Below are positions 2,846 to 29,961 of a stretch of DNA of 64,000 nt, piece by piece (the stretch's first letter is position 1; each line of letters begins with the position of its first letter). The position numbers and the translations under genes are program-made. Below the pieces are notes generated by a model, which searched no databases, was not told where the DNA came from, and saw only the letters and a list, made by a program, of their open reading frames with translations. The DNA is from Candidatus Poseidoniales archaeon (GTDB taxonomy: Archaea; Thermoplasmatota; Poseidoniia; Poseidoniales; Poseidoniaceae), in the NCBI GenBank assembly GCA_012959275.1, contig DUDM01000042.1:17018-81017 (forward strand), read 5' to 3'.

Positions 2846-4519
2846 TCACAATAGTTCATCCAATAGGTCGACAACAGTCATCCTGTTTCTATGCATGCCT
2901 CCTTCCAAGATATGCATTGATTCAAACAGCCCCATTCCCAAGGCGATTTCAGGTTGGTCTTTCATGCCACCAGATAGACTTGGATAGCGCTGCATTAATT
3001 GCTTGGCTCGCGGCATCATTTCATCTAAAAATTCGTCAAGCATTCGGGGTGCTGTTGCCCTTCCTGCAGGCAATTTAGGTCGCTTCACAATACTTGTTGG
3101 TAGAGGACTTAATGCTGCTGCACTTCGTAGTGCCCTCTTTTCCTCGCCCCATTTCTTAGAGTTTGGCAGGCGTTCTTGCATGGGCAGGTTCATCGCTTCT
3201 TCCACATGTGAAGACCCGAGGAATGGAACACGAACTTCCAAGCCATGTGCCATGCTGTGGCGGTCAACCAAGCGTAGTTGGAAGTTGGTTAACTGGCCAC
3301 GTTCTAATTCGAATTGAAGAGTATTTTGTAGTGAATTGAACATTGACAGGTCCTGTGTGGTTTGCATTCTATCGAGACGGCCCTGAATCAATTTGCGATG
3401 TTGGTCAAGGTCTCGATATCGGGGATAACCAGCATGTAATTCATCCGCCCCTTGCCCACAAAGGCCAACCGTAACGTCTTTTGACATGATTTGGAATAAT
3501 GGTTGGAAGAACATGACGGTGACATCTAGGTCCTCACCATGCCAACACATGTCAGGAACCGCACTTCCAAAAGCATCAGGGTCAAGGATTGTTTGATGGT
3601 GGACAAGGTCCAATTCACTGGCTACTAATTCTGCGGCCTGCCAATCGGGGTTATCTTCATCTTCGGCAACAGTCCAACATTCAGGAACAGGTTGGCCCGC
3701 AATTTGAGCAGCTTGATGAGATAGGGCTGCAACTAAGGCCGAATCAAGTCCACCAGATAACACGATTCCCACTGGGACATCGGACATCAAGCGGTCAGCA
3801 ATAGAATTAGTCAGAGAATCAAGCAAAGTCTTGGCTGAATAATCCTCCTTTGAAGTGATTTTGTATTGCTTGTATTTTTTACTACGAAGTAAAACTGCTT
3901 TGCCATCTTGAAGACCCCATACTTCTTCTGTGCCGGGGGCTACTTGTTCGACTCCTTCGAAAAGAGTCGCGTTGTCGAGTGGGTATTCAAAGGCAATTCT
4001 TTGTTGAAGTGCAGCCATATCCATTTTGGGCTGATAGGATTCGTGGGCACGTAAAGCCTTGGCTTCTGAGGCAACTAGTAGGGTGCCATCAACTACAGTG
4101 CGCAATAGTGGTTTGACACCTAATGGGTCGCGGGCAAGGATTAGTTCCTGCCGCTTTGCATTCCAAAGGCAGATGGCGAAGATACCATCCAACCGTGAAA
4201 CCCAGTCGCCACCTTGTTGTTGTAGAGCAAGAATTGATTCTGAATCACCTTTGGTTTTCCAAGGGTAGTTCTTCAATTCTGCTCTGGTATCTTTGTGATT
4301 ATAGATCTCTCCATTGACAACTAAGACGCTGCCATGCTCGGAGTGTATAGGTTGGTCTGAACCATGAATGTCGACAATAGCCAAACGTGAATGTCCCAAG
4401 CCGATTTCATCATCTACCCAGACATCATTTCCATCTGGTCCGCGGTGCTCAAGTAGCCCAATCATATTGCCTAGAGTAGAGGCGTCAGCCCCTCCAAGCA
4501 TGGCTGCGATACCGCACAT
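2846..4519 (-). CDS. asnB: Asparagine synthase (glutamine-hydrolysing)
   Basis: N-terminal MCGI (Cys2 Ntn-amidotransferase nucleophile), HRGPD, and the SGGLDS PP-loop ATP pyrophosphatase motif. 557 aa. Confidence 0.9.
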   Translation of the reverse strand: MCGIAAMLGGADASTLGNMIGLLEHRGPDGNDVWVDDEIGLGHSRLAIVDIHGSDQPIHSEHGSVLVVNGEIYNHKDTRAELKNYPWKTKGDSESILALQQQGGDWVSRLDGIFAICLWNAKRQELILARDPLGVKPLLRTVVDGTLLVASEAKALRAHESYQPKMDMAALQQRIAFEYPLDNATLFEGVEQVAPGTEEVWGLQDGKAVLLRSKKYKQYKITSKEDYSAKTLLDSLTNSIADRLMSDVPVGIVLSGGLDSALVAALSHQAAQIAGQPVPECWTVAEDEDNPDWQAAELVASELDLVHHQTILDPDAFGSAVPDMCWHGEDLDVTVMFFQPLFQIMSKDVTVGLCGQGADELHAGYPRYRDLDQHRKLIQGRLDRMQTTQDLSMFNSLQNTLQFELERGQLTNFQLRLVDRHSMAHGLEVRVPFLGSSHVEEAMNLPMQERLPNSKKWGEEKRALRSAAALSPLPTSIVKRPKLPAGRATAPRMLDEFLDEMMPRAKQLMQRYPSLSGGMKDQPEIALGMGLFESMHILEGGMHRNRMTVVDLLDELL

Positions 4520-4566
4520 CGATTCAGGCGCTCAGCCGGTGCTTATTCAACTCATGGTTGAATAAT

Positions 4567-4686
4567 TTAAGCAGACCAAAGAGGGAAGGCGAACATTGTC
4601 CAAATTAAAGAGCCAAATGCAAGTAAGAATGCAAGCACGTAAACGCTCTGTGGAACTTCCTCAGAGGTGCTCTCTTCTTCGCTCAT
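4567..4686 (-). CDS. Candidate 39-aa small membrane protein (below the ORF-track cutoff)
   Basis: Hand translation gives MSEEESTSEEVPQSVYVLAFLLAFGSLIWTMFAFPLWSA*: an acidic head plus one TM helix. It lies in an otherwise unassigned 220-bp gap between asnB and the next gene. Confidence 0.2.
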   Translation of the reverse strand: MSEEESTSEEVPQSVYVLAFLLAFGSLIWTMFAFPLWSA

Positions 4687-6237: not shown

Positions 6238-6659
6238 TCTGATTCTGCTCCGCAGCCGGCATCATCCTTGGCTGCAGCGGTGCTGATGAAGTCGTTGATT
6301 TGAGTGGAACTTGTTCCAGGTCCAAAAATTGCTTTTATCCCCGCCTCAAAGAGTGCTGGTTTGTCTGCAGTGGGGATTATTCCACCACCGAATACGATGA
6401 CGTGTCCGACATCAGATTCCTGAAGCAATTTACAAATCTTTGGAAATAAGTGTGCATGAGCACCTGAAAGAGAACTAAGCCCAAGGAATTGGGCATCTTC
6501 ATCGATGACAGTACGAACAATTTGTTCAGGTGTTCTCCTCAATCCAGTGTAGATGACTTCATGGCCAGCATCGCGCAATGCTCGCGCAACTACCTTTGCT
6601 CCGCGGTCATGTCCATCGAGCCCAGGTTTGGCGATGACTATGCGCAATGGGGTTGCCAT
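6219..6659 (-). CDS. Methylmalonyl-CoA mutase, B12-binding small subunit
   Basis: RIVIAKPGLDGHDRGAKVVARALRDAGHEVIYTG contains the DxHxxG cobalamin-binding motif. ATG at 6659 (MATPLRIV) is preferred over 6722. Confidence 0.9.
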   Translation of the reverse strand: MATPLRIVIAKPGLDGHDRGAKVVARALRDAGHEVIYTGLRRTPEQIVRTVIDEDAQFLGLSSLSGAHAHLFPKICKLLQESDVGHVIVFGGGIIPTADKPALFEAGIKAIFGPGTSSTQINDFISTAAAKDDAGCGAESDWHWGD

Positions 6660-6748
6660 TATGTCGCCACACAACAACCGCATTGATGTGGCTTGCGCCC
6701 ACGGTGCTTGCTGGGTAATCAATATGAGGTGGCTGCCTCTGGTCGAGG

Positions 6749-8311
6749 ATGAGCACCATGGAGACGACTAGACAACGTCTTGACAATTTACGCAACCGAA
6801 AGGTGCGTGCAGAGGCCGGTGGAGGCCAAGAAAGAGTGGATGTTCAGCACAAAAAAGGCAAATTAACGGCTCGTGAGAGATTGGATTATCTACTCGATGA
6901 AGGCTCATTTCAGGAAATCGACGCATTGGTCGAACATCGCTGCAAAGATTTCGACATGGATAAGAATATCATTCCTGGTGATGGTGTTGTTTGTGGTCAT
7001 GGAACAATCGATGGCCGACCAATCTATTGTTTCGCTCAGGACTTCACTGTTTACGGTGGAAGCCTTGGTGAAATGCATGGTCTGAAAATTTGCAAAGTCT
7101 TGGATATGGCCTTGAAAAATGGGCTTCCTGTAGTTGGCCTGAATGATTCTGGCGGCGCAAGGATTCAGGAGGGCGTAGCCTCATTGGGGTCCTATGCTGA
7201 AATCTTCTTCCGTAATGTTAGGGCAAGTGGAGTTGTTCCTCAAATCAGTGTTATCATGGGACCTTGTGCTGGTGGTGCAGTGTATTCTCCAGCAATAACC
7301 GATTTCGTCATCATGGTTGACAAGACAGCCCACATGTTCATTACCGGACCTGAAGTCATTAAGACGGTTACAAATGAGGATGTTTCATTCGAGGACTTAG
7401 GCGGAGCAGAGACTCATGGCACTAAGTCAGGAGTTTCTCACTTTACTACTCAAAGCGATGAGGAAGCACTCGACCTTGCTCGACAATTGGTAAATTACCT
7501 GCCTGCAAATAATATGGAAAAAGCACCTACAAAGAGCAGTTCGGACCCAGCCGATAGATTGTGTACATCTCTGGATACGTTAATTCCTGATGATGATAAC
7601 AAGCCCTATGATGTCCGAAAGGCGATTGAAGAAATTGCCGATAATGGGGCTTTTCTTGAAGTCCAAGCCGATTGGGCCGCAAATATCGTTGTTGGTTTTG
7701 CTCACTTAGCCGGTAATACAGTTGGTGTAGTAGCAAACCAGCCTTGTATTTTGGCCGGTTGCCTTGATATCGATGCCAGCGATAAGGCTGCCCGTTTCGT
7801 TCGTTTCTGTGATGCATTCAACATTCCATTGATTACTTTGGTCGATGTGCCTGGATTCTTGCCCGGAACCAATCAAGAGTGGGGTGGAATAATTCGCCAC
7901 GGTGCTAAACTCCTCTATGCTTATTCTGAAGCAACAGTGCCAAAGATGACAGTTATCCTTCGCAAGGCCTATGGCGGCGCATACGACGTAATGGGTTCTA
8001 AGCATATTCGTTCAGACCTTAACTTGGCATGGCCAAGCGCCCAAATCGCTGTCATGGGGGCTGATGGGGCGGTTGAAATCATTCATCGCAACCGCATTAA
8101 GTCGGCACGAAATTCTGAGCAAGAAAGAGAGAGGCTGGTTGAAGATTTCAATGATAAGTTGCTCAATCCATGGAAAGCAGCAGGGCTTGGTTACCTCGAT
8201 GATGTTATCGAACCAAGTCAAACACGACGCCGCTTAGCCGCAACTCTTGCCATTCTTCTTGACAAAGAAGAATTACGCCCAGCCCGAAAACACGGTAACA
8301 TCCCACTTTGA
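6749..8311 (+). CDS. pccB: Acyl-CoA carboxylase carboxyltransferase subunit (propionyl-CoA carboxylase beta / methylmalonyl-CoA decarboxylase alpha family)
   Basis: 520 aa. Conserved blocks [50 protein letters not shown] and [11 protein letters not shown]. Confidence 0.9.
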
Positions 8312-18736: not shown

Positions 18737-19312
18737 ATGGCTGGTGGCGGTTCAGGGGGAGAAGCAAAGATTCCTGATGTTGCAATCTTGATTGGTTCTT
18801 GTCTCGTAATCGCCGCTTTTATCATGTTGCTTTGGGATCCCACATCTACCCTACAACCTCCCGAACTCGGTGATGAATTACCTCCTGGCACCTCTTCCAC
18901 TGTTGATACATGGCAAACCTTTGACCTCAATGTTGGAGATGAAGTTTCTTTGGACTTAGGTTTGGTAGAATGTCCTGGCGAGGATGATTCAGGCGATTGT
19001 GGATTGGTTTCAGTGGCTTGGGTAGAAGGTTATGATATGCCTTCTGCAGAGGACTGGCAGCATCATGTATTGAAAGAAGGAGGTGGTTTAGAGTCCCAAT
19101 TCGATGTTCCAAGTGATGGCGAATGGACTCTACACTTGCGCACGGACTCTGTTATTGAACTAGATATGGATGTTGAGCACCAGTGGTTAACTCCTTGGAT
19201 TGCCCTATTTTTGGGAATGGGCATTGCAGTTTGGGGCTATTGGATGTCTCAACAACAGAACCTTTCTGAAAGTGATATTCTGATAGTTGATTCAAGCAAT
19301 TTATCAGATTAG
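18737..19312 (+). CDS. Hypothetical membrane-anchored protein
   Basis: N-terminal TM (VAILIGSCLVIAAFIMLLW), an acidic extracytoplasmic domain, and a C-terminal TM (WIALFLGMGIAVWGYW). The ORF stays open from 18695. Confidence 0.45.
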   Translation: MAGGGSGGEAKIPDVAILIGSCLVIAAFIMLLWDPTSTLQPPELGDELPPGTSSTVDTWQTFDLNVGDEVSLDLGLVECPGEDDSGDCGLVSVAWVEGYDMPSAEDWQHHVLKEGGGLESQFDVPSDGEWTLHLRTDSVIELDMDVEHQWLTPWIALFLGMGIAVWGYWMSQQQNLSESDILIVDSSNLSD

Positions 19313-20716
19313 GAATTGTATTCCGTCTGTCGCTGAAATTTCTTTAACACCATCTTCAAATTCAACCAATAAGTGCCCCTCATTTGTTAGTCCTACTACG
19401 GAACCAGTTTGCTTTGACAGTTGGATTTCTTGGCCATTATAGAGGCCGGCTGACATCATTCCCCATGCCAGTTCAATTATCTCGTTATTCTTCATGTTAG
19501 GAACTCCTTGCTTAGACTCCAGCAAGCCTGCTAAAGCAGCATCTAAGCGTTTTTGGAAATCCTTATTCTGATGCTTAATTGTAGCAATTGGGATGTCTTC
19601 ATCCTTATCCATGAAGTTGGCGCCTATGCCAATCACGAATCTGTTTTCTTGGCCTTTGCTTTTACCTTCTGCAAGACAACCTGCAAATTTTCTTTTGCCA
19701 ATCCACACATCATTTGGCCACTTCATCCAATGGTTGATTTTTTCATCCTGATGAATTTCAATTGAATCAAGGCTTTGCATCAGTGCAATCCCTGCTGATA
19801 GTTGAAGAATTCCTGCATCATTCACTGGAACTAGCCAAGAGCATAGTAGGTCGCCTTCTTTTGAAATCCATTTTGAATCTCTTTGGCCTCTGCCCTTGGT
19901 TTGATTTAAGGCCTTAATACAACGCCCTATTTTACCACCTTGTTCAAGCATTAGACTATTTGTTGAGGAAACGACTCCTACTTCCTCAACAGGACGAGCA
20001 TTCCACGGTCGCCAGAATGCTAGAACTTCCAGATGCTCCCCATCATCAAATGTTATAGCAACCGCTGAGCGTTGAGCCCAACCTCTTCCGATAGCTTCCT
20101 CGCCAAGATATCTGCCGATTGTGGTCGATGAGCGGATTATCAAAACGATGCCATCGTCATTCAACAAATTTCCTTCTTCGATGGCATCCAATAATACAAC
20201 TCCACTGCCTTGTTCCCAATCCAGATCTACCATACCTGCTTCTTCCAGTGGACCTAATACTGGGTCACCTTCGCTAGGGGGGTCTAAGTAGGGTGGATTC
20301 CAGATGATGACATCGTGTTTTCCTTGGGCCCATTGTTTAATTTCGCCTTCTCCAGGACCGCCTTCTACAACCGTTAATCTTGAAGACAATCCCATCTCTT
20401 CTGCCCTGCCTCGGACTGCTGCTACAGCAAGTGGATTAATGTCACAAGTGGACACTCTGAAACCTCTCATTGCAGCCCACAAAGAAACGGCTCCAGAGCC
20501 GCAACCTATCTCTAAGAGTGAGCGACCATTTCCAGGGCCTAATGAGAGCACAGAATCGCACAAAATCCCCGTATCCTCTCCCGGCGGATATACTGTCGGC
20601 GGAACTAGTAAATCCAACATCGCACCATCAGGTGCAGACCACCCCACTTCTTCAGCCTCTTCAATGAAGACTTCTAACTCCCTATTGACATTGTCTTCAA
20701 CGAATGATGTGCGCAT
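19304..20716 (-). CDS. birA: Fusion: HemK/Mtq2-like (release-factor glutamine) methyltransferase domain plus biotin--protein ligase BirA
   Basis: N-terminal half: VYPPGEDTGIL, SAM motif LEIGCGSGAVS, and NPPY (IIWNPPYLD). C-terminal half: BirA motifs QTKGRGQRDSKW and KWPNDVWIGKRKFAGCLAEG. Confidence 0.8.
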   Translation of the reverse strand: MRTSFVEDNVNRELEVFIEEAEEVGWSAPDGAMLDLLVPPTVYPPGEDTGILCDSVLSLGPGNGRSLLEIGCGSGAVSLWAAMRGFRVSTCDINPLAVAAVRGRAEEMGLSSRLTVVEGGPGEGEIKQWAQGKHDVIIWNPPYLDPPSEGDPVLGPLEEAGMVDLDWEQGSGVVLLDAIEEGNLLNDDGIVLIIRSSTTIGRYLGEEAIGRGWAQRSAVAITFDDGEHLEVLAFWRPWNARPVEEVGVVSSTNSLMLEQGGKIGRCIKALNQTKGRGQRDSKWISKEGDLLCSWLVPVNDAGILQLSAGIALMQSLDSIEIHQDEKINHWMKWPNDVWIGKRKFAGCLAEGKSKGQENRFVIGIGANFMDKDEDIPIATIKHQNKDFQKRLDAALAGLLESKQGVPNMKNNEIIELAWGMMSAGLYNGQEIQLSKQTGSVVGLTNEGHLLVEFEDGVKEISATDGIQFLI

Positions 20717-20900: not shown

Positions 20901-20974
20901 GGGCTTGTAGCTCAGTCAGGTAGAGCGCCGGGCTTTTAACCCGGTTCGCGCGGGTTCGAACCCCGTCAAGCCCG
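20901..20974 (+). tRNA. tRNA-Lys: tRNA-Lys (anticodon UUU); CCA is encoded at 20975-20977
   Basis: Hand-folded cloverleaf. Acceptor GGGCTTG/CAAGCCC, D stem GCTC/GAGC, anticodon stem CCGGG/CCCGG with loop CTTTTAA, 5-nt variable loop, T stem GCGGG/CCCGT with loop TTCGAAC, discriminator G. Confidence 0.9.
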
Positions 20975-21028
20975 CCATCTGACGACTCCAAGCCCCCCTC
21001 TGAATTGGGCACTGGCGGGTGAAGAAAA

Positions 21029-21649
21029 ATGGTGGTAAAAAGCGCTACAAAAAAGCGTCTAATGGAACTAGGTGTCGATGAGGAATACGCTCACAAACTC
21101 GCCACTGATAGAAACATGGCTGACATCAAACAACTTTCACTTGATGAAGTATCAGCAATCGTCTCACTTTCCAAGGATGAAGATAAGTTCTCCTCCCTGA
21201 TGGATGTTATTCGAGAAGTCGGTGCAACTCGCCGCAAGCGCCGAAGCAAGAAGATTACCATCAATGCCAAGGCTGTCGACGAAGATGATTTCCCGATGGG
21301 TTTGACCAAATTCAACGTTCTAAACCATGTCATGGTACCTCACCAACAATTGGTTCCTATGGAAGATGAAGAAGAAGTCCTTGCTCCATGGAATCTAATC
21401 AAGCCTGACGAGGAAACCGGAGAGGACCGCCTTGCTAAGGAATTACTTCCGAAGATTCTCATTACAGACCCTGTTGTACAAGTCATCAAAGAGATGGCAG
21501 AGAAGGACGACATGCTTCTTTCAGCAGCTGACCCAGAACATATTCCCCTAGCAGCCGGATGGTTGGCAGACCGAGTTATTAGAGTCAAGAGGCACAGCCT
21601 CTCGGCCGGTATCTCAGTGGCTTATCGCCTAATAGTTGAGGGTAATTGA
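21029..21649 (+). CDS. rpoH: RNA polymerase subunit H (Rpo5) with ~95-aa N-terminal extension and internal inserts
   Basis: The C-terminal part, HVMVPHQQLV..LLPKILITDPVV..RVIRVKRHSLSAGISVAYRLIV, matches the RpoH/Rpb5 C-terminal-domain consensus. It sits directly upstream of rpoB. Confidence 0.85.
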   Translation: MVVKSATKKRLMELGVDEEYAHKLATDRNMADIKQLSLDEVSAIVSLSKDEDKFSSLMDVIREVGATRRKRRSKKITINAKAVDEDDFPMGLTKFNVLNHVMVPHQQLVPMEDEEEVLAPWNLIKPDEETGEDRLAKELLPKILITDPVVQVIKEMAEKDDMLLSAADPEHIPLAAGWLADRVIRVKRHSLSAGISVAYRLIVEGN

Positions 21650-21662
21650 GGAGGAATTAATC

Positions 21663-24600: not shown

Positions 24601-25277
24601 AAGATATGCCATTCACTCGTGATGGAATCATCCCTGACCTAATCATCAACCCACACGCGATTCCAAGCCGCATGACCGTTGCCCACGTCCTCGAGATGAT
24701 CGGTGGTAAGGTCGGCTCTATGGATGGACGCTTCATCGATGGAACAGCATTCAGTGGGGAGAAAGAAGTTAGTATCCGTGAAGGATTGACTCGCCATGGA
24801 TTCAACCACACTGGTCGTGAGACCATGTACAATGGTGAAACTGGTGAAGAATACCCAGTCGAAATCTTCCTTGGAGTCATCTACTACCAGAAGTTGCACC
24901 ACATGGTTTCAGGAAAGATACACGCCCGTTCACGTGGACGCGTACAAATCCTTACTCGCCAACCAACCGAAGGACGTGCCCGCCAAGGTGGACTAAGATT
25001 CGGAGAGATGGAAAGAGACTGTCTAATCGCCCACGGAGTATCGATGGTCATCAAGGATAGACTACTCGACCAGTCGGACGGAGAGAAATTGTTGGTTTGT
25101 TCTGAATCCGGTCATATCGCTTGGTATGATTGGCGAAGACGGACCTATGTCAGTCCGGTCTTAGGGCCTGGCGCAGAGGTGCACGAGGTGCAAACATCCT
25201 ATGCATTCAAACTGCTACTTGATGAGATGAAATCTCTGGGAGTTGCAATGAGACTTGAACTGGAGGACCAGAGATGA
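21663..25277 (+). CDS. rpoB: RNA polymerase subunit B (unsplit)
   Basis: About 1200 aa. Blocks GGYFIINGTERV, NWVGGRSGVSQLLDR, RHGQKGV, GGLRFGEMERDC and others. ATG at 21663 is preferred over 21636. Confidence 0.95.
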   Translation: MQEIITAFFRERSLVNHQLASYDDCIPSSDSRLSRMERIVQAISVGTDEDNDDDQGGIIKLDVIDQDIMVRLKNIQLGSPTIREANGSEHDATPMECRLRKLTYMSPVTIDFTIYRNGIPNNPEKGVQVGSLPIMTRSARCNLHPNHLVNDRVLNPAHSDEDMKITHDMWRKKGEDPLDPGGYFIINGTERVLISMEDLAPNRVTIEINKRYAKKTEVAKIFSQKEGVRKPLTVEKRRDGMLMVKISTAGTTAIPVVLLMRAMGIENDQDIFQAIAGPTQTFKYIVANINEVKDNEEYMVENIEEAHQWLEKKFAAGQQKEYREARVQQLIDREVLPHLGDQPEDRKKKAIFIGRIVRQVLEMALDDKPPNDKDHYANKRVRLAGDLFEDLFRVSMNQLARDLKYQLERHHNRKRDLKITSCLRPDVLTSKIMHALATGNWVGGRSGVSQLLDRTTYLASLSHMRRVTSPLVRSQPHFEARDLHPTQWGRLCPNETPEGQNCGLVKNAAQMIDVSEQVDEMEIKARLDEMDVFQPDDWTDGDRIHVNGDIYGIHKRGKNLVKQFKNARRRGSIRSEVCIRYDAVNKDIFINTDKGRILRPLLILHDGAPRLTNQNLEDLRSGDMVFDELLNQGIVEWVDAEEEEDLLIAPRPFTLPAVAPDSCKKIAGRPLTHENIVWTNLGAEGVDHAKLKARVQMPNGSWEEETFKVPLEYTSDHTHVEIDPQLILGVCASLIPYPEHNSTPRVTGGTAMVKQSLGLPSANYRLRPDTRLHVLHYPQRSIVGTRAMETTKFLQRPGGQNFIVAIMSLHGYNMQDAVIMNRSSVERGMSRSTFIRTYNAERRRYPGGQIEEIEIPGSGLEEVKGLKPTEAYGHLEEDGLPTPETFLEGGDVLVGKTSPPRFLEETGAGAFLQAQERRESSMLVRHGELGWIDNVYVTESLDSGRLCRITMRSHKVPEVGDKFASRHGQKGVIGRLVNQEDMPFTRDGIIPDLIINPHAIPSRMTVAHVLEMIGGKVGSMDGRFIDGTAFSGEKEVSIREGLTRHGFNHTGRETMYNGETGEEYPVEIFLGVIYYQKLHHMVSGKIHARSRGRVQILTRQPTEGRARQGGLRFGEMERDCLIAHGVSMVIKDRLLDQSDGEKLLVCSESGHIAWYDWRRRTYVSPVLGPGAEVHEVQTSYAFKLLLDEMKSLGVAMRLELEDQR

Positions 25278-28200
25278 AAACTAACGCAACTTCACTGATA
25301 CCAAAGCGAATTTCCAGCATCCGCTTCAGCCTGATGGACCCTAACGAGATCCGCAAGATGTCGGCTGTTGAGGTTAAGACAGCAGATACTTACAAGGATG
25401 ACGGGCACGCATATCGCCAAGGATTGATGGACCCCAAAATGGGAGTTATCGAACCGGGAATTCGTTGTGATACCTGTGGAAACAAGTATGATGAATGCCC
25501 ATCGCACTTTGGTCACATCCAATTGGAACTTCCAGTCATCCACATCGGTTTCGTTGGTCTAATCAAGACCGCGTTGAAGACAACTTGCAACTCATGTAGT
25601 CGCGTTCTTCTTCACGAAGCCAAGGGTACACATCCAAGCGATGCAGAAAAGTCAGAACAAGATTATTATCGCTCACGCATCATCGATACCATCCAAAAAC
25701 ACGGACTGGGTTCGACCGAGTTTTCCAAGATTATCAAGGAAGTCGAGAAGATATGTTGCAGTGCCAAGCGCCGAGTTTGCATGCACTGTGGTGAAGAGCA
25801 AGGAAAAATCATGCTCGATAAGCCAACCACCTTCAAGGAGAGAGCAGAATCCGGAACCACAGCAAAGGGCAGCGAAAAGAAACTCAATGCACGTGATATC
25901 AGAGAATTGTTAGGGGAAATCCCGATGAATGACCTAATATTCATTGGAATGGACAAGTCTAACCGACCTGAATGGGCAATCATGCGTGTACTACCTGTAC
26001 CCCCAATCACTGTGCGTCCCTCGATTACCCTTGACAGTGGAGACCGTTCAGAAGACGACTTGACTCACAAGTTAGTCGACGTTCTACGAATTAACCAGCG
26101 CCTACGTGAAAACCGTGACGCAGGTGCCCCACAACTAATCGTTGAGGACCTTTGGGAACTTCTACAATACCATATTACAACTTACTTTGACAACCAAACC
26201 AGTGGAATTCCACCGGCCCGCCACCGTTCAGGTCGCCCATTGAAGACCCTGACACAACGCCTGAAAGGTAAGGAAGGACGTTTCCGTAGCAACCTATCTG
26301 GAAAGCGTGTTAACTTCTGTGCCCGTTCAGTCATATCCCCAGACCCATTCTTGGGAATCAACGAGGTTGGAGTGCCTACTCAAATCGCCAAAGAACTGAC
26401 CGTACCAATTCGTGTCACAACAAGAAACCGTGAACAGATGAGACAGATGATTCTTCGTGGACCAAACGTACACCCTGGTGTCAACTATGTAATCCGCGCA
26501 GATGGTCGTCGTGTTAGAATCAATGACCGTTCAAAGCAAATTAACGCTGGATTCCGTTGTCATAACCCTGATTGTCAAACCGAGACCACCTTACGCCCAG
26601 ATCTCGACAGTGTCATGCCAGCCCCTAATTTCCTTCCCGGAATCGTCATCCGTAAGATGACTCGCCGTACCGATACCGAAATTGGCGGCGCCCCACAAAT
26701 GGAAGAATATTACGAAGTGGATGAACCAGCAACTTTGTCAAATCTACAAGGTGAAGACGCCAGCCACCAACCATTGGCTGAAGACGACCCACGTGCAGTC
26801 CTACACTACCGCTGGAAGTGGGAGTTGGCAAACCCAGATGAGTCCACTGGGGCATACCCAGAGCACTTAGAGGTCTCCTGTCCTCACTGTGGTTCTCCTG
26901 AAATAAACGGCTATAGAACTCGAGTAGAAGACCGCTTATCCACCTTCGACCTTGACGGTACACCCCGCCCAGGAATGATTATTGAACGCCACCTAATTGA
27001 TGGAGATGTTACAATCTTCAATCGACAGCCTTCACTACACAGAATGTCGATGATGGTTCACGAAATACGTGTTATGCCTGGCCGAACCTTCAGGTTTAAC
27101 TTGGCAGTATGTACCCCATACAACGCTGATTTCGACGGTGATGAAATGAATCTGCACGTAATTCAGGGAGAAGAAGCCCGTGCAGAAGCACAGATTCTGA
27201 TGCGTGTACAAGAACACATCCTTACTCCTCGCTATGGTGGAGCTGTTATCGGTGGAATACACGACCATATTTCTGGAGCATACTTGCTGACAAGGCCAGG
27301 TACTACGGTCGATAAGACAGTTGGTATGGATATTTTGGGACGAATCGATTACACCGGCCCTCTACCTAAAGAAATCAAGAGGGCTGATGGCTCACCCGGT
27401 TTTAACGGTGCAGACCTAATTGGCCTGATCGTCCCAGAGAACATCATGCTTCGCTTCCGTAGCCGTTCCAATGAAGATGTCATCATCAATTCAGGAACAG
27501 TTGTAGGAACACTCGACAAGAGAGCGATTGGTGCTGAAGACGGCCGCCTACTGGACGCTATTGTCCAGACAAACGGTCCAACTGAAGGAGCCAAGTTCAT
27601 TGATGACATGACTCGTTTAACTATCGGTGCTTGCACCGCTCTAGGATTTACAACTGGAATCGACGATGAAGACTTGCCCCCCGAAGCACTAGCAGAAATT
27701 GAGCGAATCAATTCCGATGCACGTGATAAAGTAGATGAAGAGTTGGTTAAATTTGGAAAGGATGGACGTGGCTATGAAGCCCGCCCAGGACGCACTCCAC
27801 TTGAGACCATGGAAGAGAATATCATGGTCATCTTGGACGAAGGAAAAGCCGAATCTGGTAATATTGCAAAGACCAACCTGACCGAGAGCAGTGAAGACAA
27901 TGCTGCAGTAAACATGGCTATCTCTGGTGCACGTGGTTCGATGGATAACCTGACGATGATGGCCGGTTCAATAGGTCAAGCAAAGGTACGTGGTGCACGC
28001 TTGGAACGTGGATACAAGGATAGAGTTCTACCTCACTTCCCTCGTGGACTAAAGGGTGCTCGAGAAAAGGGATTCATCTCTTCTTCCTTCAAGCGTGGTC
28101 TTGAACCAACAGAGTTCTTCATGCTATCAATATCTGGAAGAGAATCACTGGTCGATACCGCGGTTCGTACCAGTAAGTCAGGATACATGCAACGCCGACT

Positions 28201-28405
28201 GATCAACGCAATGGACGACCTAAAGGTCTTCAAAGATGAAAAACTATCTGTTAGAAACACCGCAGACCGAATTATTCAATTCGAGTATGGAGAAGATGGA
28301 ATCGACCCATGCCGAAGTGTGCACGGAATGCCCGTCAATACTGATGTCATAATTGACAAAGTACTGGGCACTAAGAGCAAGGCTGTAAAAGGAGGCGGTA
28401 AGTGA
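25274..28405 (+). CDS. rpoA1: RNA polymerase subunit A' (Rpo1N) with lineage-specific insertion
   Basis: Zn motifs [44 protein letters not shown], and the catalytic [10 protein letters not shown]. 4-bp overlap with rpoB. Confidence 0.95.
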
Positions 28406-29961
28406 TGGTAGTAAAGAGTGCAACCAAGAAGAAGCTCATGGATATGCAGGTGCCAGAAGAATTTGCGCACTTGCTTGCGGATGACCGAAAGTGGGATGAT
28501 GTCAAAGTCCTAACTTCCCAAGAAATTGCAGCCCTCTGTAAAACAGATTCAGAGACTGGAAATAAACTACACCAGATTATCCTCACCGCAGCAGGAGGCC
28601 GTTCCGATAGTTCAGATGCCGGAGCCACCACCGTAGTTCGCCGAAGAGTAGCCAGCCGCCGCCGCCGTACAAAGGTGGTTCAGGAACTCGAAGTGTATGA
28701 TGAAGATAGTAAACTGGGACTTTATTACGATGAAATTGTAGAAGACCCAATCCACAAGGCACTCGTGAAGGCTGATGAAGCAACTGGTGGAAAACCACTA
28801 TCTGCTCGTGTATTAACCGACTTGTGCGACTCTCTTTGGGCTCGTGAGCGCAAGAAGATTACAGCTAAGCAAGCGACTGAAATCATAGATGCAACCCGTG
28901 CTGCATTCAAGAAGGCCCGAATCGACCCATATGAAGCAGCAGGAATCACTACCGCACAATCGATTGGAGAACCAGGAACACAAATGACCATGCGTACATT
29001 CCACTATGCGGGTGTTGCAACAGTCAACGTCACTCAAGGTCTTCCAAGAATCATTGAAATTGTCGATGCTCGAAAAGTTCCAGATACTCCAACTATGACC
29101 ATCAGGCTGGATGAGGATAAGAAAAATAATGCTGATGCAGCCCGTAAGTTAGCAGCAGGAATTGAAGTCACTTTGGCAAAGAATATCGCCGATATCGAGA
29201 CTGATGTAGCACAGAGAAAGTTGGTCCTTAAACTCAAGGTTGGCAATCTCAAACAAAAGAACATGACTGGTGACGAAGTAAGGGACAAATTATCCCGTGC
29301 TCTACGCCTACACATAATAGCGGACAAGGAAAAGAAACCCCGTGTTTTGACAATCATCCCAGGAGTGATTAAGGAAGATGACCTTGCTGACCTTAACGAA
29401 AACCCCCCTTCCTATACTGAATTACTTCAATTGGAAGATAAGGTTAGAGACCTACGCCTCAAAGGAATTCCTGGAATTGAGCGTGCAAACGTACAGAAGG
29501 ATGAACAAACCGAAGAATTCTACCTCTCTACAATTGGTAGCAACTTAGCTCGTGTTTCAGACTTAGAAGGAATCGACCGTAGCCGCACTTATACCAACAA
29601 TATCATCGAGATTTACGAATACCTCGGAATAGAAGCAGCCCGCCAAGCCATCATCAATGAATTGAAGGCTACTTTGGAAGGAGCAAGATTGGAAGTCGAT
29701 GTTCGCCACCTATTGATGGTTGCTGATGTCATGACCAGTGAGGGAGCAGTTCGTGCAATTGGTCGCCACGGAGTCAGTGGAAACAAGCACAGTATCCTTG
29801 CACGTGCAGCATTCGAAGTCACCGTTAACCACCTACTAAAGGCAGGAATAATCGGTGAGCGTGATCGCCTAACTGGCGTAGCAGAAAACATCATCGTCGG
29901 ACAACCAATCAGTTTGGGAACTGGCGCTGTAGAATTGTTTTACATCCCCGAAGAGGGATGA
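28405..29961 (+). CDS. rpoA2: RNA polymerase subunit A'' (Rpo1C) with ~130-aa N-terminal extension
   Basis: [25 protein letters not shown] and the C-terminal [17 protein letters not shown] blocks. Its ATG overlaps the rpoA1 TGA by 1 nt. Confidence 0.92.

Follow-up and report, generated by a model that had tools for sequence, protein, structure and literature searches.

Gene organization at rpoH and rpoA2

The window, a 64,000-nt stretch of DNA from a Candidatus Poseidoniales archaeon (GCA_012959275.1, contig DUDM01000042.1, positions 17,018–81,017, forward strand), contains the genes for two RNA polymerase (RNAP) subunits, rpoH (21029–21649, 206 aa) and rpoA2 (28405–29961, with an ATG at 28405, 518 aa). 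These open reading frames agree with the original prediction, which had proposed that RpoH is unusually long and that both proteins begin with the same extra module. All features described here lie on the plus strand. A tRNA-Lys(UUU) gene identified by ARAGORN (20901–20977) is located directly upstream of rpoH, outside the module, and in all 20 relatives examined the 3' end of a tRNA gene is found ~45–50 nt ahead of rpoH. A Shine-Dalgarno-like sequence, GGGTGA (21017–21022), precedes the rpoH ATG by 6 nt; the corresponding position is G-rich in the 20 relatives, with GGGGG, GGAGG, or GGTG motifs.

At 206 aa, RpoH is indeed longer than the solved archaeal RpoH chains (74–78 aa), and open frames for RpoH in other orders of the same class encode 81–121 aa. 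Three parts can be distinguished within it. The canonical RpoH/Rpb5 C-terminal (assembly) domain occupies codons 95–206 and the stop codon (21311–21649), as delimited by Pfam, Foldseek, and AF2. Pfam PF01191 (Rpb5_C) matches only residues 95–202 (E=8.4e-10), the AF2 model of this domain has a pLDDT of ~90, and Foldseek alignments to RpoH/Rpb5 chains extend over ~107–112 columns. A lineage-specific helix is inserted at residues 148–167. The domain is preceded by a tether (codons 67–94, 21227–21310) that is predicted by AF2 to be disordered and that includes the sequence RRKRRSKK (21230–21253). The remaining N-terminal part, which we call the head (codons 1–66, 21029–21226), is delimited by BLASTP similarity to RpoA'', AF2, alignment, and third-position-biased substitutions. 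It is composed of a basic N-tail and predicted helices at residues 6–13, 18–25, 30–34, 38–45, and 52–66 (AF2).

The rpoA2 gene has a comparable layout. Its start codon (28405–28407) overlaps the stop codon of rpoA1 (28403–28405) in the sequence TGATG (28403–28407). Codons 1–64 (28405–28596) encode a paralogue of the RpoH head, identified by BLASTP and AF2 and likewise predicted to form five helices. From translation and alignment, codons 65–95 (28597–28689) encode a tether that is Ser/Gly/Ala-rich and then basic (28639–28674). The rest of the N-terminal extension (codons 96–135, 28690–28809) was defined by alignment and shows order-wide conservation of Y98, K103, and L120. The canonical RpoA'' core follows (28810–29961; Pfam PF04998, E=2.5e-49). 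Matches to RpoA'' proteins of other orders start only at query residues 113–160, and the aligned part of sister-order RpoA'' matches solved A'' chains of 391–397 aa. The Pfam, Foldseek, and solved-chain matches support the proposal that an extra module was added to two otherwise canonical RNAP subunits.

The predicted homology between the two N-termini was borne out by pairwise BLASTP alignment. Residues 1–45 of RpoH and RpoA'' align without gaps, with 25/45 positions identical and 34/45 positive (E=9e-12). An example of the N-terminal peptide of these extensions is LMELGVDEEYAHK. Each head is also followed by an Arg/Lys-rich stretch, as had been noted: RRKRRSKK at residues 68–75 of RpoH and a counterpart at residues 79–90 of RpoA''.

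Translation and selection on the extensions

The original prediction named one outcome that would overturn it, namely that the upstream parts are not translated and the true starts lie at internal codons, giving short canonical subunits. Errors in gene calling would be an artefact of the same kind. The sole point in favor of such an artefact is that some gene callers picked other starts, giving 195-aa versions of RpoH from M12. Against it, the frames are open and conserved in all genomes of the order examined, and substitutions are biased to third codon positions. The two head copies in the window differ at the DNA level mostly at third codon positions. Among 21 orthologues, differences per codon position 1/2/3 were 0.30/0.20/0.58 for RpoH and 0.22/0.11/0.54 for RpoA''. 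For rpoA2 codons 2–12, codon pairs differed non-synonymously in 2.6% of cases versus synonymously in 37.7% (21 orthologues).

The start codons also speak against the artefact. The RpoH start stays at one fixed position while its identity switches (ATG in 16, TTG in 4, and GTG in 1 of the 21 orthologues), with a Shine-Dalgarno sequence upstream; the rpoA2 start is ATG in 21/21 orthologues, and in the window it overlaps the rpoA1 stop. No conserved internal start was found among the orthologues, and five of the 21 RpoH genes contain no start codon in frame anywhere from codon 60 to the Rpb5_C domain. Internal initiation fails on the third-position bias, the switching start codon, and these five genes, and we regard an annotation artefact as very improbable. 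Judging from the substitution patterns and start positions, the head modules are translated and under purifying selection.

Predicted fold, charge, and sequence of the heads

Five helices are predicted for each head. The RpoH model was built from an RpoH alignment (pLDDT ~85), and the RpoA'' model from a mixed alignment of both heads (pLDDT 79; helices 6–13, 18–25, 30–34, 38–45, and 49–64); helix positions are nearly equal in the two. In the RpoH tether, pLDDT drops below 50 at residues 68–75 and 90–99. The predicted head has the architecture of (HhH)2 domains, a compact five-helix unit with two helix-hairpin-helix (HhH) motifs and a connector helix, such as is found in the C-termini of FANCM/FAAP24 and XPF/ERCC1, the RadA/Rad51 N-domain, and the NusA acidic repeats. 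Several (HhH)2 domains are protein-protein modules as much as they are DNA binders. The best Foldseek neighbor of the head is the (HhH)2 domain of FANCM (TM 0.73, prob 1.0); further neighbors include the RadA/Rad51 N-domain, the NusA C-terminal HhH repeats, SAM domains, and sigma region 4 domains. The lowest E-value among all these neighbors is 0.22, which is not significant. Searches of Pfam and PDB sequences gave no match to the head above threshold. Pfam HHH_6 scores 16.5–18.9 bits, under its cut-off of 25.6, and its match spans residues 30–84, which is out of register with the head. In addition to the lack of a significant sequence or structure E-value, the head differs from (HhH)2 domains in that it lacks the G-h-G signature and carries a basic N-terminal peptide that has no counterpart in them.

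These results bear on the earlier suggestion of a helix-hairpin-helix or SAP-like nucleic-acid-binding motif. The first half of this suggestion is supported by the predicted five-helix, HhH-like fold and its (HhH)2 neighbors. The second half is not: Pfam gave no SAP match (PF02037) at E-values up to 10, and a SAP domain, at about 35 residues, has two helices in place of the five predicted here.

The sequence of the hairpins departs from the HhH consensus, h-x-x-h-x-G-h-G, which contacts backbone phosphates: it lacks the second Gly and continues with acidic residues. Hairpin 1 reads LGV[DSPKE] in RpoH and [LM][GQLD][IV]x in RpoA'', in which the Gly is not conserved; it is MQVP in the window (Gly to Gln) and MLVP in two relatives. 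Among orthologues, residues 1–10 have a net charge of +4 and residues 11–64 a net charge of −4.3 to −5.7. The tethers (residues 65–95) are again positive, with mean net charges of +4.6 in RpoH (21 orthologues) and +7.7 in RpoA''.

One interpretation of these features is that the heads are conventional (HhH)2 binders of the DNA backbone that, with the basic tethers, would form two non-specific dsDNA clamps on the polymerase, comparable in function to the pair of alpha-CTDs in bacterial RNAP or to the 'guard rail' of the Rpb5 jaw. The best fold neighbors are (HhH)2 DNA binders, the weak HHH_6 match points the same way, basic segments flank the heads on both sides, and the anchor point adjoins downstream DNA (PMC2675907, PMC3479171, PMC2847245). 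However, the G-h-G consensus is missing, the single hairpin Gly is not conserved in RpoA'', and the folded core is acidic (−4 to −6). The sequence therefore argues against canonical HhH-DNA contact by the head.

Distribution and evolution

The taxonomic survey that had been suggested found the module throughout the order. Both head copies are present in 41/41 relatives and in 76/76 Poseidoniales genomes, and a profile scan of the phylum recovered both in 36/36 Poseidoniales genomes and no credible copy elsewhere. The only two weak matches in that scan, one to the small primase subunit (in a helical segment) and one to a glycosyltransferase, were judged spurious. The resemblance of the two N-termini is neither accidental nor limited to the source genome. 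Each sampled Poseidoniales genome has exactly two copies, one per subunit, and the two described here are the only ones in the source assembly (GCA_012959275.1).

In a tree of the heads, those of RpoH form one clade (support 97/87), and the grouping of f3, a family of the same order, is recovered within both the RpoH and RpoA'' types. This recovery of f3 in both head types, together with the synonymous differences in DNA, led us to reject the idea that the identical N-termini arose by gene conversion or from a shared RNA element. The duplication onto RpoH took place before the radiation of the order, and the RpoA'' head is probably the older copy. The N-terminus of sister-order RpoA'' resembles the head weakly (hhalign E=5e-4, probability 31%) and is probably homologous to it.

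That the heads are paralogous and always co-occur would fit a structural strap, in which they bind only each other and join RpoH to RpoA'', stabilizing assembly of the split largest subunit and the lower jaw but touching neither DNA nor factors. FANCM-FAAP24-type (HhH)2 domains, the best fold neighbors, are heterodimerization modules. The largest subunit is contacted extensively by Rpb5 through its C-terminal part (PMC13257274). Other archaea nevertheless assemble these subunits without heads, disordered basic tethers of ~30 residues would be odd in a structural strap, and the occurrence of the head on dozens of mobile-element proteins would be left unexplained unless those proteins disturb assembly. 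We consider the strap unlikely.

Head-bearing proteins on mobile-element-like DNA

A search of 1.84 billion representative proteins gave 201 head matches. Among the 149 matches listed, 63 run at least 40 residues past any RNAP-like sequence. At least seven recurrent families were recognized by eye among the 48 carriers listed, and the carriers include a TFB-like cyclin repeat lacking the Zn ribbon, an AAA ATPase, and a 1292-aa protein. One of them, P0339, consists of a head and one TFIIB repeat that scores over the Pfam cut-off. The neighborhoods of carrier genes contain tyrosine integrases and same-strand arrays of ORFans, and Pfam and PHROG scans of neighboring ORFs were mostly empty. One carrier contig encodes a prim-pol, a complete TFB (phrog_20431, 1e-57), and an Hjc-like nuclease. 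Judging by the gene content of these short contigs, the non-RNAP carriers look like they reside on viral or plasmid DNA.

Several searches for the head in viral collections were negative. No capsid or terminase gene was seen on the carrier contigs; nothing was found in IMG/VR with protein P0319, the head profile, or a degenerate DNA pattern, nor in GenBank phage and archaeal-virus records with tblastn; and a fold search of BFVD gave no significant match. In a scan of a single metagenome, 77 of the 80 loci were host rpoA2 and two were rpoA2 fragments at contig ends, so that only one (L076) had a mobile-element context. We also looked for tRNA genes beside carrier genes, as a sign of capture by excision at the tRNA-Lys/rpoH junction, and found none.

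The head begins at residue 5 or earlier in 40 of the 43 non-RNAP carriers inspected, as it is at the extreme N-terminus in all RNAP copies. The most conserved part of the head is residues 1–11, with M1, S5, T7, K8, and L11 invariant and V3, K4, and K9 conserved at ≥90%. MVVKSATKK and the first helices could thus be a tag for a modifying, sorting, or degrading system (e.g., lysine methylation or acetylation, or a degron), in which case the bearers would be regulated in common without binding one another; a lysine of the Rpo13 tail is methylated in Sulfolobus (PMC3479171). Yet conservation in the RNAP copies reaches beyond the peptide over the folded five-helix domain, there is no candidate reader or modifier, and the capture of gene 5' ends could alone produce the N-terminal position. 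We find such a signal quite unlikely.

Only profile positions up to 50 are retained in 26 of the 43 inspected carriers, so these proteins, with only the first ~35–50 residues, lack the second HhH. This finding counts against the DNA-clamp interpretation, according to which mobile-element proteins would carry the head as a handy DNA-binding domain. The same is true of the exactly two copies per genome, with no other use of the domain by the host. Mobile-element heads are moreover nested at several places within the RpoH and RpoA'' types, as close copies of host RNAP heads that appear to have been taken several times from particular host lineages. Because of this repeated capture, mimicry fits better than a generic DNA binder. 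The DNA-clamp interpretation is still a contender, although a doubtful one.

Comparison with known systems

Textbooks and structural studies state that archaeal RpoH has no N-terminal extension (PMC3906176, PMC3479171). In Sulfolobus RNAP, the RpoH N-terminus is the docking place of Rpo13 (PMC2675907), whose Lys-rich tail binds downstream dsDNA non-specifically (PMC3479171), and the authors of that work speculated that the void is filled in other archaea by 'analogous rather than orthologous' elements (PMC3479171). Like the Poseidoniales module, Rpo13 is small and helical with flanks of opposite charge; it lies on the N-terminal side of RpoH/Rpo5 beside downstream DNA (PMC2675907, PMC3479171). 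Both have a basic disordered stretch, and the module would, as Rpo13 does, occupy the place of the eukaryotic Rpb5 jaw. As to position, the agreement is confined to attachment at the N-terminus of RpoH and to the pattern of charge. The module forms part of RpoH, comprises five helices, and recurs on RpoA'', whereas Rpo13 is a subunit of its own and contains a helix-turn-helix. Rpo13 occurs in Thermoproteota and not Thermoplasmatota, and it is not known to have been copied onto mobile-element proteins. A profile of 42 heads searched against all PDB chains, including the Rpo13 entries 2waq and 4ayb, gave no evidence of homology to Rpo13, with its HTH core and ISVDEA patch, and matched only a designed repeat (E=0.14).

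In eukaryotes the Rpb5 jaw forms a 'guard rail' along downstream DNA and is bound by TFIIB among other factors (PMC3479171, PMC13257274). Like the module, it is an additional domain joined to the N-terminal side of this subunit at the same point, but it has another fold, a length of ~130–140 aa, and an independent origin. Pfam gave no match to the Rpb5 N-domain (PF03871), and Foldseek alignments to Rpb5 chains cover only the C-terminal ~107 columns.

A further analogy, in design and not in family membership, is to the bacterial alpha-CTD, which like the module is a compact helical domain on a flexible linker, present twice per enzyme. The alpha-CTD has HhH-type motifs, contacts DNA, and serves as a docking site for regulators. 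It is found at the C-termini of two identical alpha subunits near upstream DNA, whereas the module is N-terminal, on RpoH and RpoA'', and on the downstream side; the module also has an acidic core and degenerate hairpins. No sequence similarity to the alpha-CTD (PF03118) was detected by Pfam or the PDB profile search. Taken with the Foldseek results, these searches leave homology to the Rpb5 jaw, Rpo13, the alpha-CTD, or SAP unsupported.

A model for the two arms

Since the same head is found on two RNAP subunits and on many unrelated mobile-element-like proteins, it looks like a docking or DNA-contact arm that has been copied by mobile elements. We propose that the polymerase bears two tethered arms on its downstream-DNA side, with tethers that contact DNA and heads that act as docking surfaces mimicked by mobile elements, a model that we would give an even chance of being correct. 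Each arm would consist of a ~65-aa head, a ~30-aa disordered Arg/Lys-rich tether, and the subunit that anchors it at its N-terminus, RpoH or RpoA''. We assume the placement of these two N-termini in the enzyme from the literature and general background on Pol II and archaeal structures. The head itself would combine the basic N-terminal peptide (MVVKSATKK) with an acidic, (HhH)2-like five-helix bundle.

The basic tethers, and perhaps the basic N-tails as well, would contact dsDNA non-specifically where the DNA channel ends downstream, in the manner of the Lys-rich Rpo13 tail. The acidic heads would be protein-docking elements, associating with one another or else sharing a single partner or groove on the polymerase. 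Proteins of mobile elements, the TFB-like cyclin repeat without a Zn ribbon among them, may have acquired copies of the head on repeated occasions. The copied heads would bring these proteins to the site or partner used by the host heads, the simplest candidate being the host polymerase.

More tentatively, and with our own judgment leaning against it, the MVVKSATKK head may be a lineage-specific transcription 'address tag'. Viruses and plasmids would have stolen it, from both versions, for effectors that plug into, redirect, or block host RNAP, and the two polymerase copies on their flexible arms would associate mutually or with one common site. The presence of the module on dozens of unrelated mobile-element-like proteins, which could not have been seen when the original prediction was made, changes its likely function.

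Implications

We found no description of this head module in the literature searched. The Poseidoniales, or Marine Group II archaea, rank with the most abundant microbes of the surface ocean and are still uncultured, so their transcription machinery is known from sequence alone. Our analysis indicates that, against the stated archaeal rule, the whole order has an RpoH N-terminal extension, duplicated onto a second subunit. In its design, the module is also what the tethered alpha-CTD is to bacteria. If the mobile-element heads bind the polymerase, they would make up a class of interface between virus and host that is new, easy to test, and found in a major lineage of the ocean. The MVVKSATKK... 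sequence would then also provide a handle by which Poseidoniales mobile elements could be recognized in metagenomes.

A shared N-terminal extension on RpoH and RpoA''

The ORF list, Pfam and a tRNA search identify this region of the window as an archaeal RNA polymerase (RNAP) operon: tRNA-Lys(UUU) (20901-20977) lies on the same strand as rpoH and 51 nt upstream of it, and is followed by rpoH (21029-21649, 206 aa), an unsplit rpoB (ending at 25277), rpoA1 (25274-28405, 1043 aa) and rpoA2 (28405-29961, 518 aa). The N-termini of RpoH and RpoA'' had been predicted to be homologous, and pairwise BLASTP bears this out: residues 1-45 align without gaps and 25/45 are identical (E=9e-12). Both proteins also carry, as proposed, an Arg/Lys-rich stretch (the tether) after this module of about 65 aa (the head). 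RpoH is indeed unusually long, at 206 aa versus 74-78 aa in solved archaeal RpoH chains, which match just the C-terminal part of our RpoH model. In Pfam, Rpb5_C is confined to residues 95-202 of RpoH, and Rpb1 domain 5 begins only at residue 78 of RpoA''; solved A'' chains measure 391-397 aa. From these domain limits and chain lengths, the N-terminal extension is estimated at ~94 aa in RpoH and ~130 aa in RpoA''.

The original prediction had allowed that the upstream parts might be untranslated, with the true starts at internal codons. This scenario finds no support in the coding sequences. The head DNA of rpoH and rpoA2 differs mostly at synonymous sites, and the first 12 codons specify MVVKSATKK(R/K)LM in both genes with differing third bases. 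Across the window and 20 relatives, mean pairwise differences in codons 2-45 at codon positions 1/2/3 were 0.30/0.20/0.58 for RpoH and 0.22/0.11/0.54 for RpoA''; within RpoA'' codons 2-12, 2.6% of codon pairs differ non-synonymously and 37.7% synonymously. The rpoH start codon switches among ATG (n=16), TTG (n=4) and GTG (n=1) at the same position throughout the 21 genomes, 5-10 nt after a G-rich Shine-Dalgarno-like motif (GGGTGA, 21017-21022, in the window), and in each of the 20 relatives examined a tRNA gene ends ~45-50 nt upstream with its 3' end. Since 5/21 rpoH genes lack any in-frame ATG, GTG or TTG codon from codon 60 to the conserved domain, a short RpoH could not be made in general. 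The ATG of rpoA2 overlaps the rpoA1 stop (TGATG). These patterns argue that both extensions are translated and under selection, and we regard an artefact as barely credible.

Several other features of the operon were observed. Rpb5_C of RpoH contains a lineage-specific insertion (residues ~148-178, 21470-21560), made up of a predicted helix (148-167) and, in the window's own family only (apparently Poseidoniaceae), a further ~10 residues; this accounts for its length of ~112 aa versus 73 in the Pfam model. The ORF list starts rpoB at TTG 21636, overlapping rpoH; ATG 21660, preceded by GAGGAGG (21648-21654), is more plausible. In RpoA', Pfam Rpb1 domain 2 falls in two stretches separated by an insertion of ~120-130 aa with Cys pairs (~26560-26955). 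The tRNA/rpoH spacer (within 20901-21028) has a Shine-Dalgarno motif and no obvious AT-rich promoter box, so the two genes may be co-transcribed. Upstream of the tRNA, a 470-aa ORF (19304-20716, minus strand) apparently joins a methyltransferase-like N-terminal half to a biotin-protein-ligase-like C-terminal half (GRGQRDSKW, KWPNDV).

Distribution and origin of the head

The names given to near-identical proteins in public sources point to Poseidoniales / Poseidoniaceae, the Marine Group II archaea. The window's own genome (a 1.92-Mb assembly, 77% complete) contains only the two copies of the head. Both were found in 41/41 relatives (three families, 22 genera), as well as in 76/76 genomes from the order. 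When 201 genomes of the phylum (36 Poseidoniales and 165 others) were scanned with a profile, two copies were recovered in 35/36 Poseidoniales genomes; copy number departs from two in G035 (one copy, the rpoH head lying at a contig edge) and G081 (three, including a contig-end duplicate). No credible copy was detected in the 165 other genomes, where two weak matches, a primase segment and a glycosyltransferase, were rejected.

Elsewhere in the class, the other orders have a short, canonical RpoH (open frames of 81-121 aa) and an RpoA'' of 760-860 aa (contigs L042-L050, e.g. L042:277-2574) whose N-terminal extension is ~370 aa long. This extension opens with MA(K/R)xDT(I/V/L)RALE(K/R)RG(L/M)..LA(E/A)(K/R)..D, collinear with the head, and profile-profile comparison gives a weak match (E=5e-4, probability 31%). 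Its three parts are an HhH-like head, a ~170-aa conserved domain (GVIWSLPEGYTI...ARNYTQVED) without a Pfam match, and a second HhH-like pair. The simplest history suggested by these sequences is that an HhH-like head is older on RpoA'' and was duplicated onto RpoH in the Poseidoniales ancestor. The head tree, which has 48 columns only and unreliable finer branching, agrees with this history, as the RpoH heads all fall into a single clade (support 97/87) and a family of the same order, f3, is recovered as a group within both head types.

Predicted fold and charge

AlphaFold2, run on a 33-sequence RpoH alignment, predicts five helices in the RpoH head (6-13, 18-25, 30-34, 38-45 and 52-66; pLDDT about 85), disorder at ~67-99 (pLDDT below 50 at 68-75 and 90-99), and an Rpb5_C domain that includes the inserted helix 148-167 (pLDDT about 90). 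The RpoA'' head model, built on a 42-sequence alignment of both head types, places its helices almost identically (pLDDT 79). In Foldseek searches with the head alone, where no E-value fell below 0.2, the best PDB neighbours were (HhH)2 domains, led by the FANCM C-terminus (4bxo_A; TM 0.73, probability 1.00) and including FANCM-FAAP24-DNA, the RadA/Rad51 N-domain and NusA C-terminal repeats, followed by SAM domains. The fold had no significant match in BFVD, nor the profile in all PDB sequences, and no Pfam family exceeded its threshold (HHH_6 scored 16.5-18.9 bits; cut-off 25.6). These neighbours, together with the lack of significant BFVD, PDB or Pfam matches, suggest an (HhH)2-like fold in a sequence family that appears undescribed.

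The proposal of an HhH-like motif thus stands for the fold, by prediction, but not for the canonical hairpin signature. The hairpins lack G-h-G, and their only Gly is Gln in the window's RpoA''. Net charge is -4 to -6 over residues 11-64, +4 over residues 1-10, and +4.6 (RpoH) and +7.7 (RpoA'') in the tethers. The missing signature and the acidic core are departures from canonical DNA-binding HhH.

Heads on non-polymerase proteins and putative mobile elements

Searching 1.84 billion representative proteins with the head profile (E up to 1e-3) returned only 201 matches, most of them RpoH or RpoA'' fragments. Among the 149 listed, 63 reach at least 40 residues past any RNAP-like sequence. There are at least seven recurrent head-bearing families of 150-340 aa; those recognized by eye include families with GFRGLGSLFG repeats, WYPEYYEDWV, INWP.(K/R)NPM.VKE, FGIFNWWWGED or GAP(I/L)LH(L/I)GY (320-340 aa). 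The head begins within the first five residues in 40 of the 43 non-RNAP carriers inspected, whose consensus includes.G..e..AH.LA.DRkw.dvk.l; 26/43 keep only profile positions up to 50, which suggests that the second hairpin is dispensable.

Individual carriers are diverse. P0319 (L052:1884-5762, 1292 aa) has an RpoA''-type head and matches nothing in Pfam or PHROG; its gene shares a 7-kb TARA contig with small same-strand ORFans and adjoins a thymidylate-synthase-like gene (phrog_17568). P0314 (L064:1012-3567, 851 aa) combines N-terminal C2H2-type zinc fingers, one of the few internal heads (93-147) and an AAA_15/AAA_21 ATPase, a type common in defence systems. P0317 joins the head to MORN repeats. 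P0339 (L068:314-895, 193 aa, on a 970-nt contig) joins an RpoA''-type head to one TFIIB cyclin repeat (25.9 bits, Pfam cut-off 23.6), with no Zn ribbon.

Judged from the gene content of short contigs, the surroundings of these heads look mobile. P0363, another carrier, is flanked by two tyrosine integrases, and other carriers sit in same-strand ORFan arrays with a thymidylate-synthase PHROG, DUF3846 or HRDC. A TARA metagenome contig (L076:1-10855, 10.9 kb) resembles a mobile element: its head-bearing ORF (3570-4574, 334 aa) is accompanied by genes for a primase-polymerase (3-869), an Hjc-like endonuclease (7624-8205) and a TFB (6608-7552; phrog_20431, E=1e-57) that is complete, having both the Zn ribbon and two cyclin repeats; the remainder is a same-strand ORFan array. 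No capsid or terminase genes were seen on head-bearing contigs, and searches of IMG/VR and of the GenBank phage set found no head-bearing elements. In the 48-column tree, mobile-element heads nest at several places within both the RpoH and RpoA'' clades; one carrier, P0279, falls inside a single genus-level RpoH group and keeps the RpoH linker up to where Rpb5_C would begin. This scatter and the retained linker indicate that heads were captured repeatedly from hosts.

Possible roles and relation to known systems

Archaeal Rpo5 lacks the ~130-residue Rpb5 jaw, the eukaryotic N-terminal domain. The Lys-rich tail of Rpo13, a Sulfolobales subunit docked at the RpoH/Rpo5 N-terminal side, binds downstream dsDNA non-specifically, and its authors, noting that the Rpb5 N-domain occurs in no archaeon, allowed for analogous occupants of the void in other archaea (PMC3479171). 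Another study places subunit H near downstream DNA and calls it important for open-complex formation (PMC2847245). The RpoH attachment point is informative: the extension has suitable components at a suitable position, with a basic, predicted disordered stretch directly before the assembly domain and an acidic helical head that could occupy a basic groove. Judging by Pol II and archaeal structures, the A'' N-terminus would belong to the foot/cleft part of the 'shelf' module that also contains Rpb5; two ~30-residue tethers could then bring both heads together.

Our best reading has three parts: the basic tethers would contact downstream DNA much as the Rpo13 tail does, the heads would dock either to one another or to a single shared site, and mobile elements would copy the head to get to that site; we give it about an even chance. 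Plain DNA binding by the heads is less likely but stays the main rival, and docking or mimicry is favored over it because the TFB-like chimera P0339 has a head in place of the RNAP-binding Zn ribbon, the core is acidic with degenerate hairpins, the second HhH is lost in most mobile copies, and the domain has no other host use. That the heads act as an assembly strap is unlikely, and that they are an N-terminal regulatory tag is a little more unlikely still.

Of the three closest analogues, Rpo13 would share its place with the RpoH arm and has a similar charge logic, but it is a separate subunit of unrelated sequence. Each bacterial RNAP likewise has a pair of tethered HhH-type domains in its alpha-CTDs, but on another subunit, at its other end and on another side of the enzyme; the Rpb5 jaw is attached at the same point as the RpoH arm but has an unrelated fold. 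By sequence or by position, the head belongs to none of these families; its place in the (HhH)2 fold class is a matter of prediction, and the hairpin signature is missing. Full-text searches found no description of the module; a survey from 2026 treats Rpo6 and Rpo8 among the small subunits of archaeal RNAPs without mentioning it (PMC13257274), and a 2014 paper describes archaeal RpoH as lacking N-terminal extensions (PMC3906176). We regard the arms as a lineage-specific accessory to multisubunit RNAP, a kind already known, and the use of the head as an 'address tag' stands a fair chance of being new.
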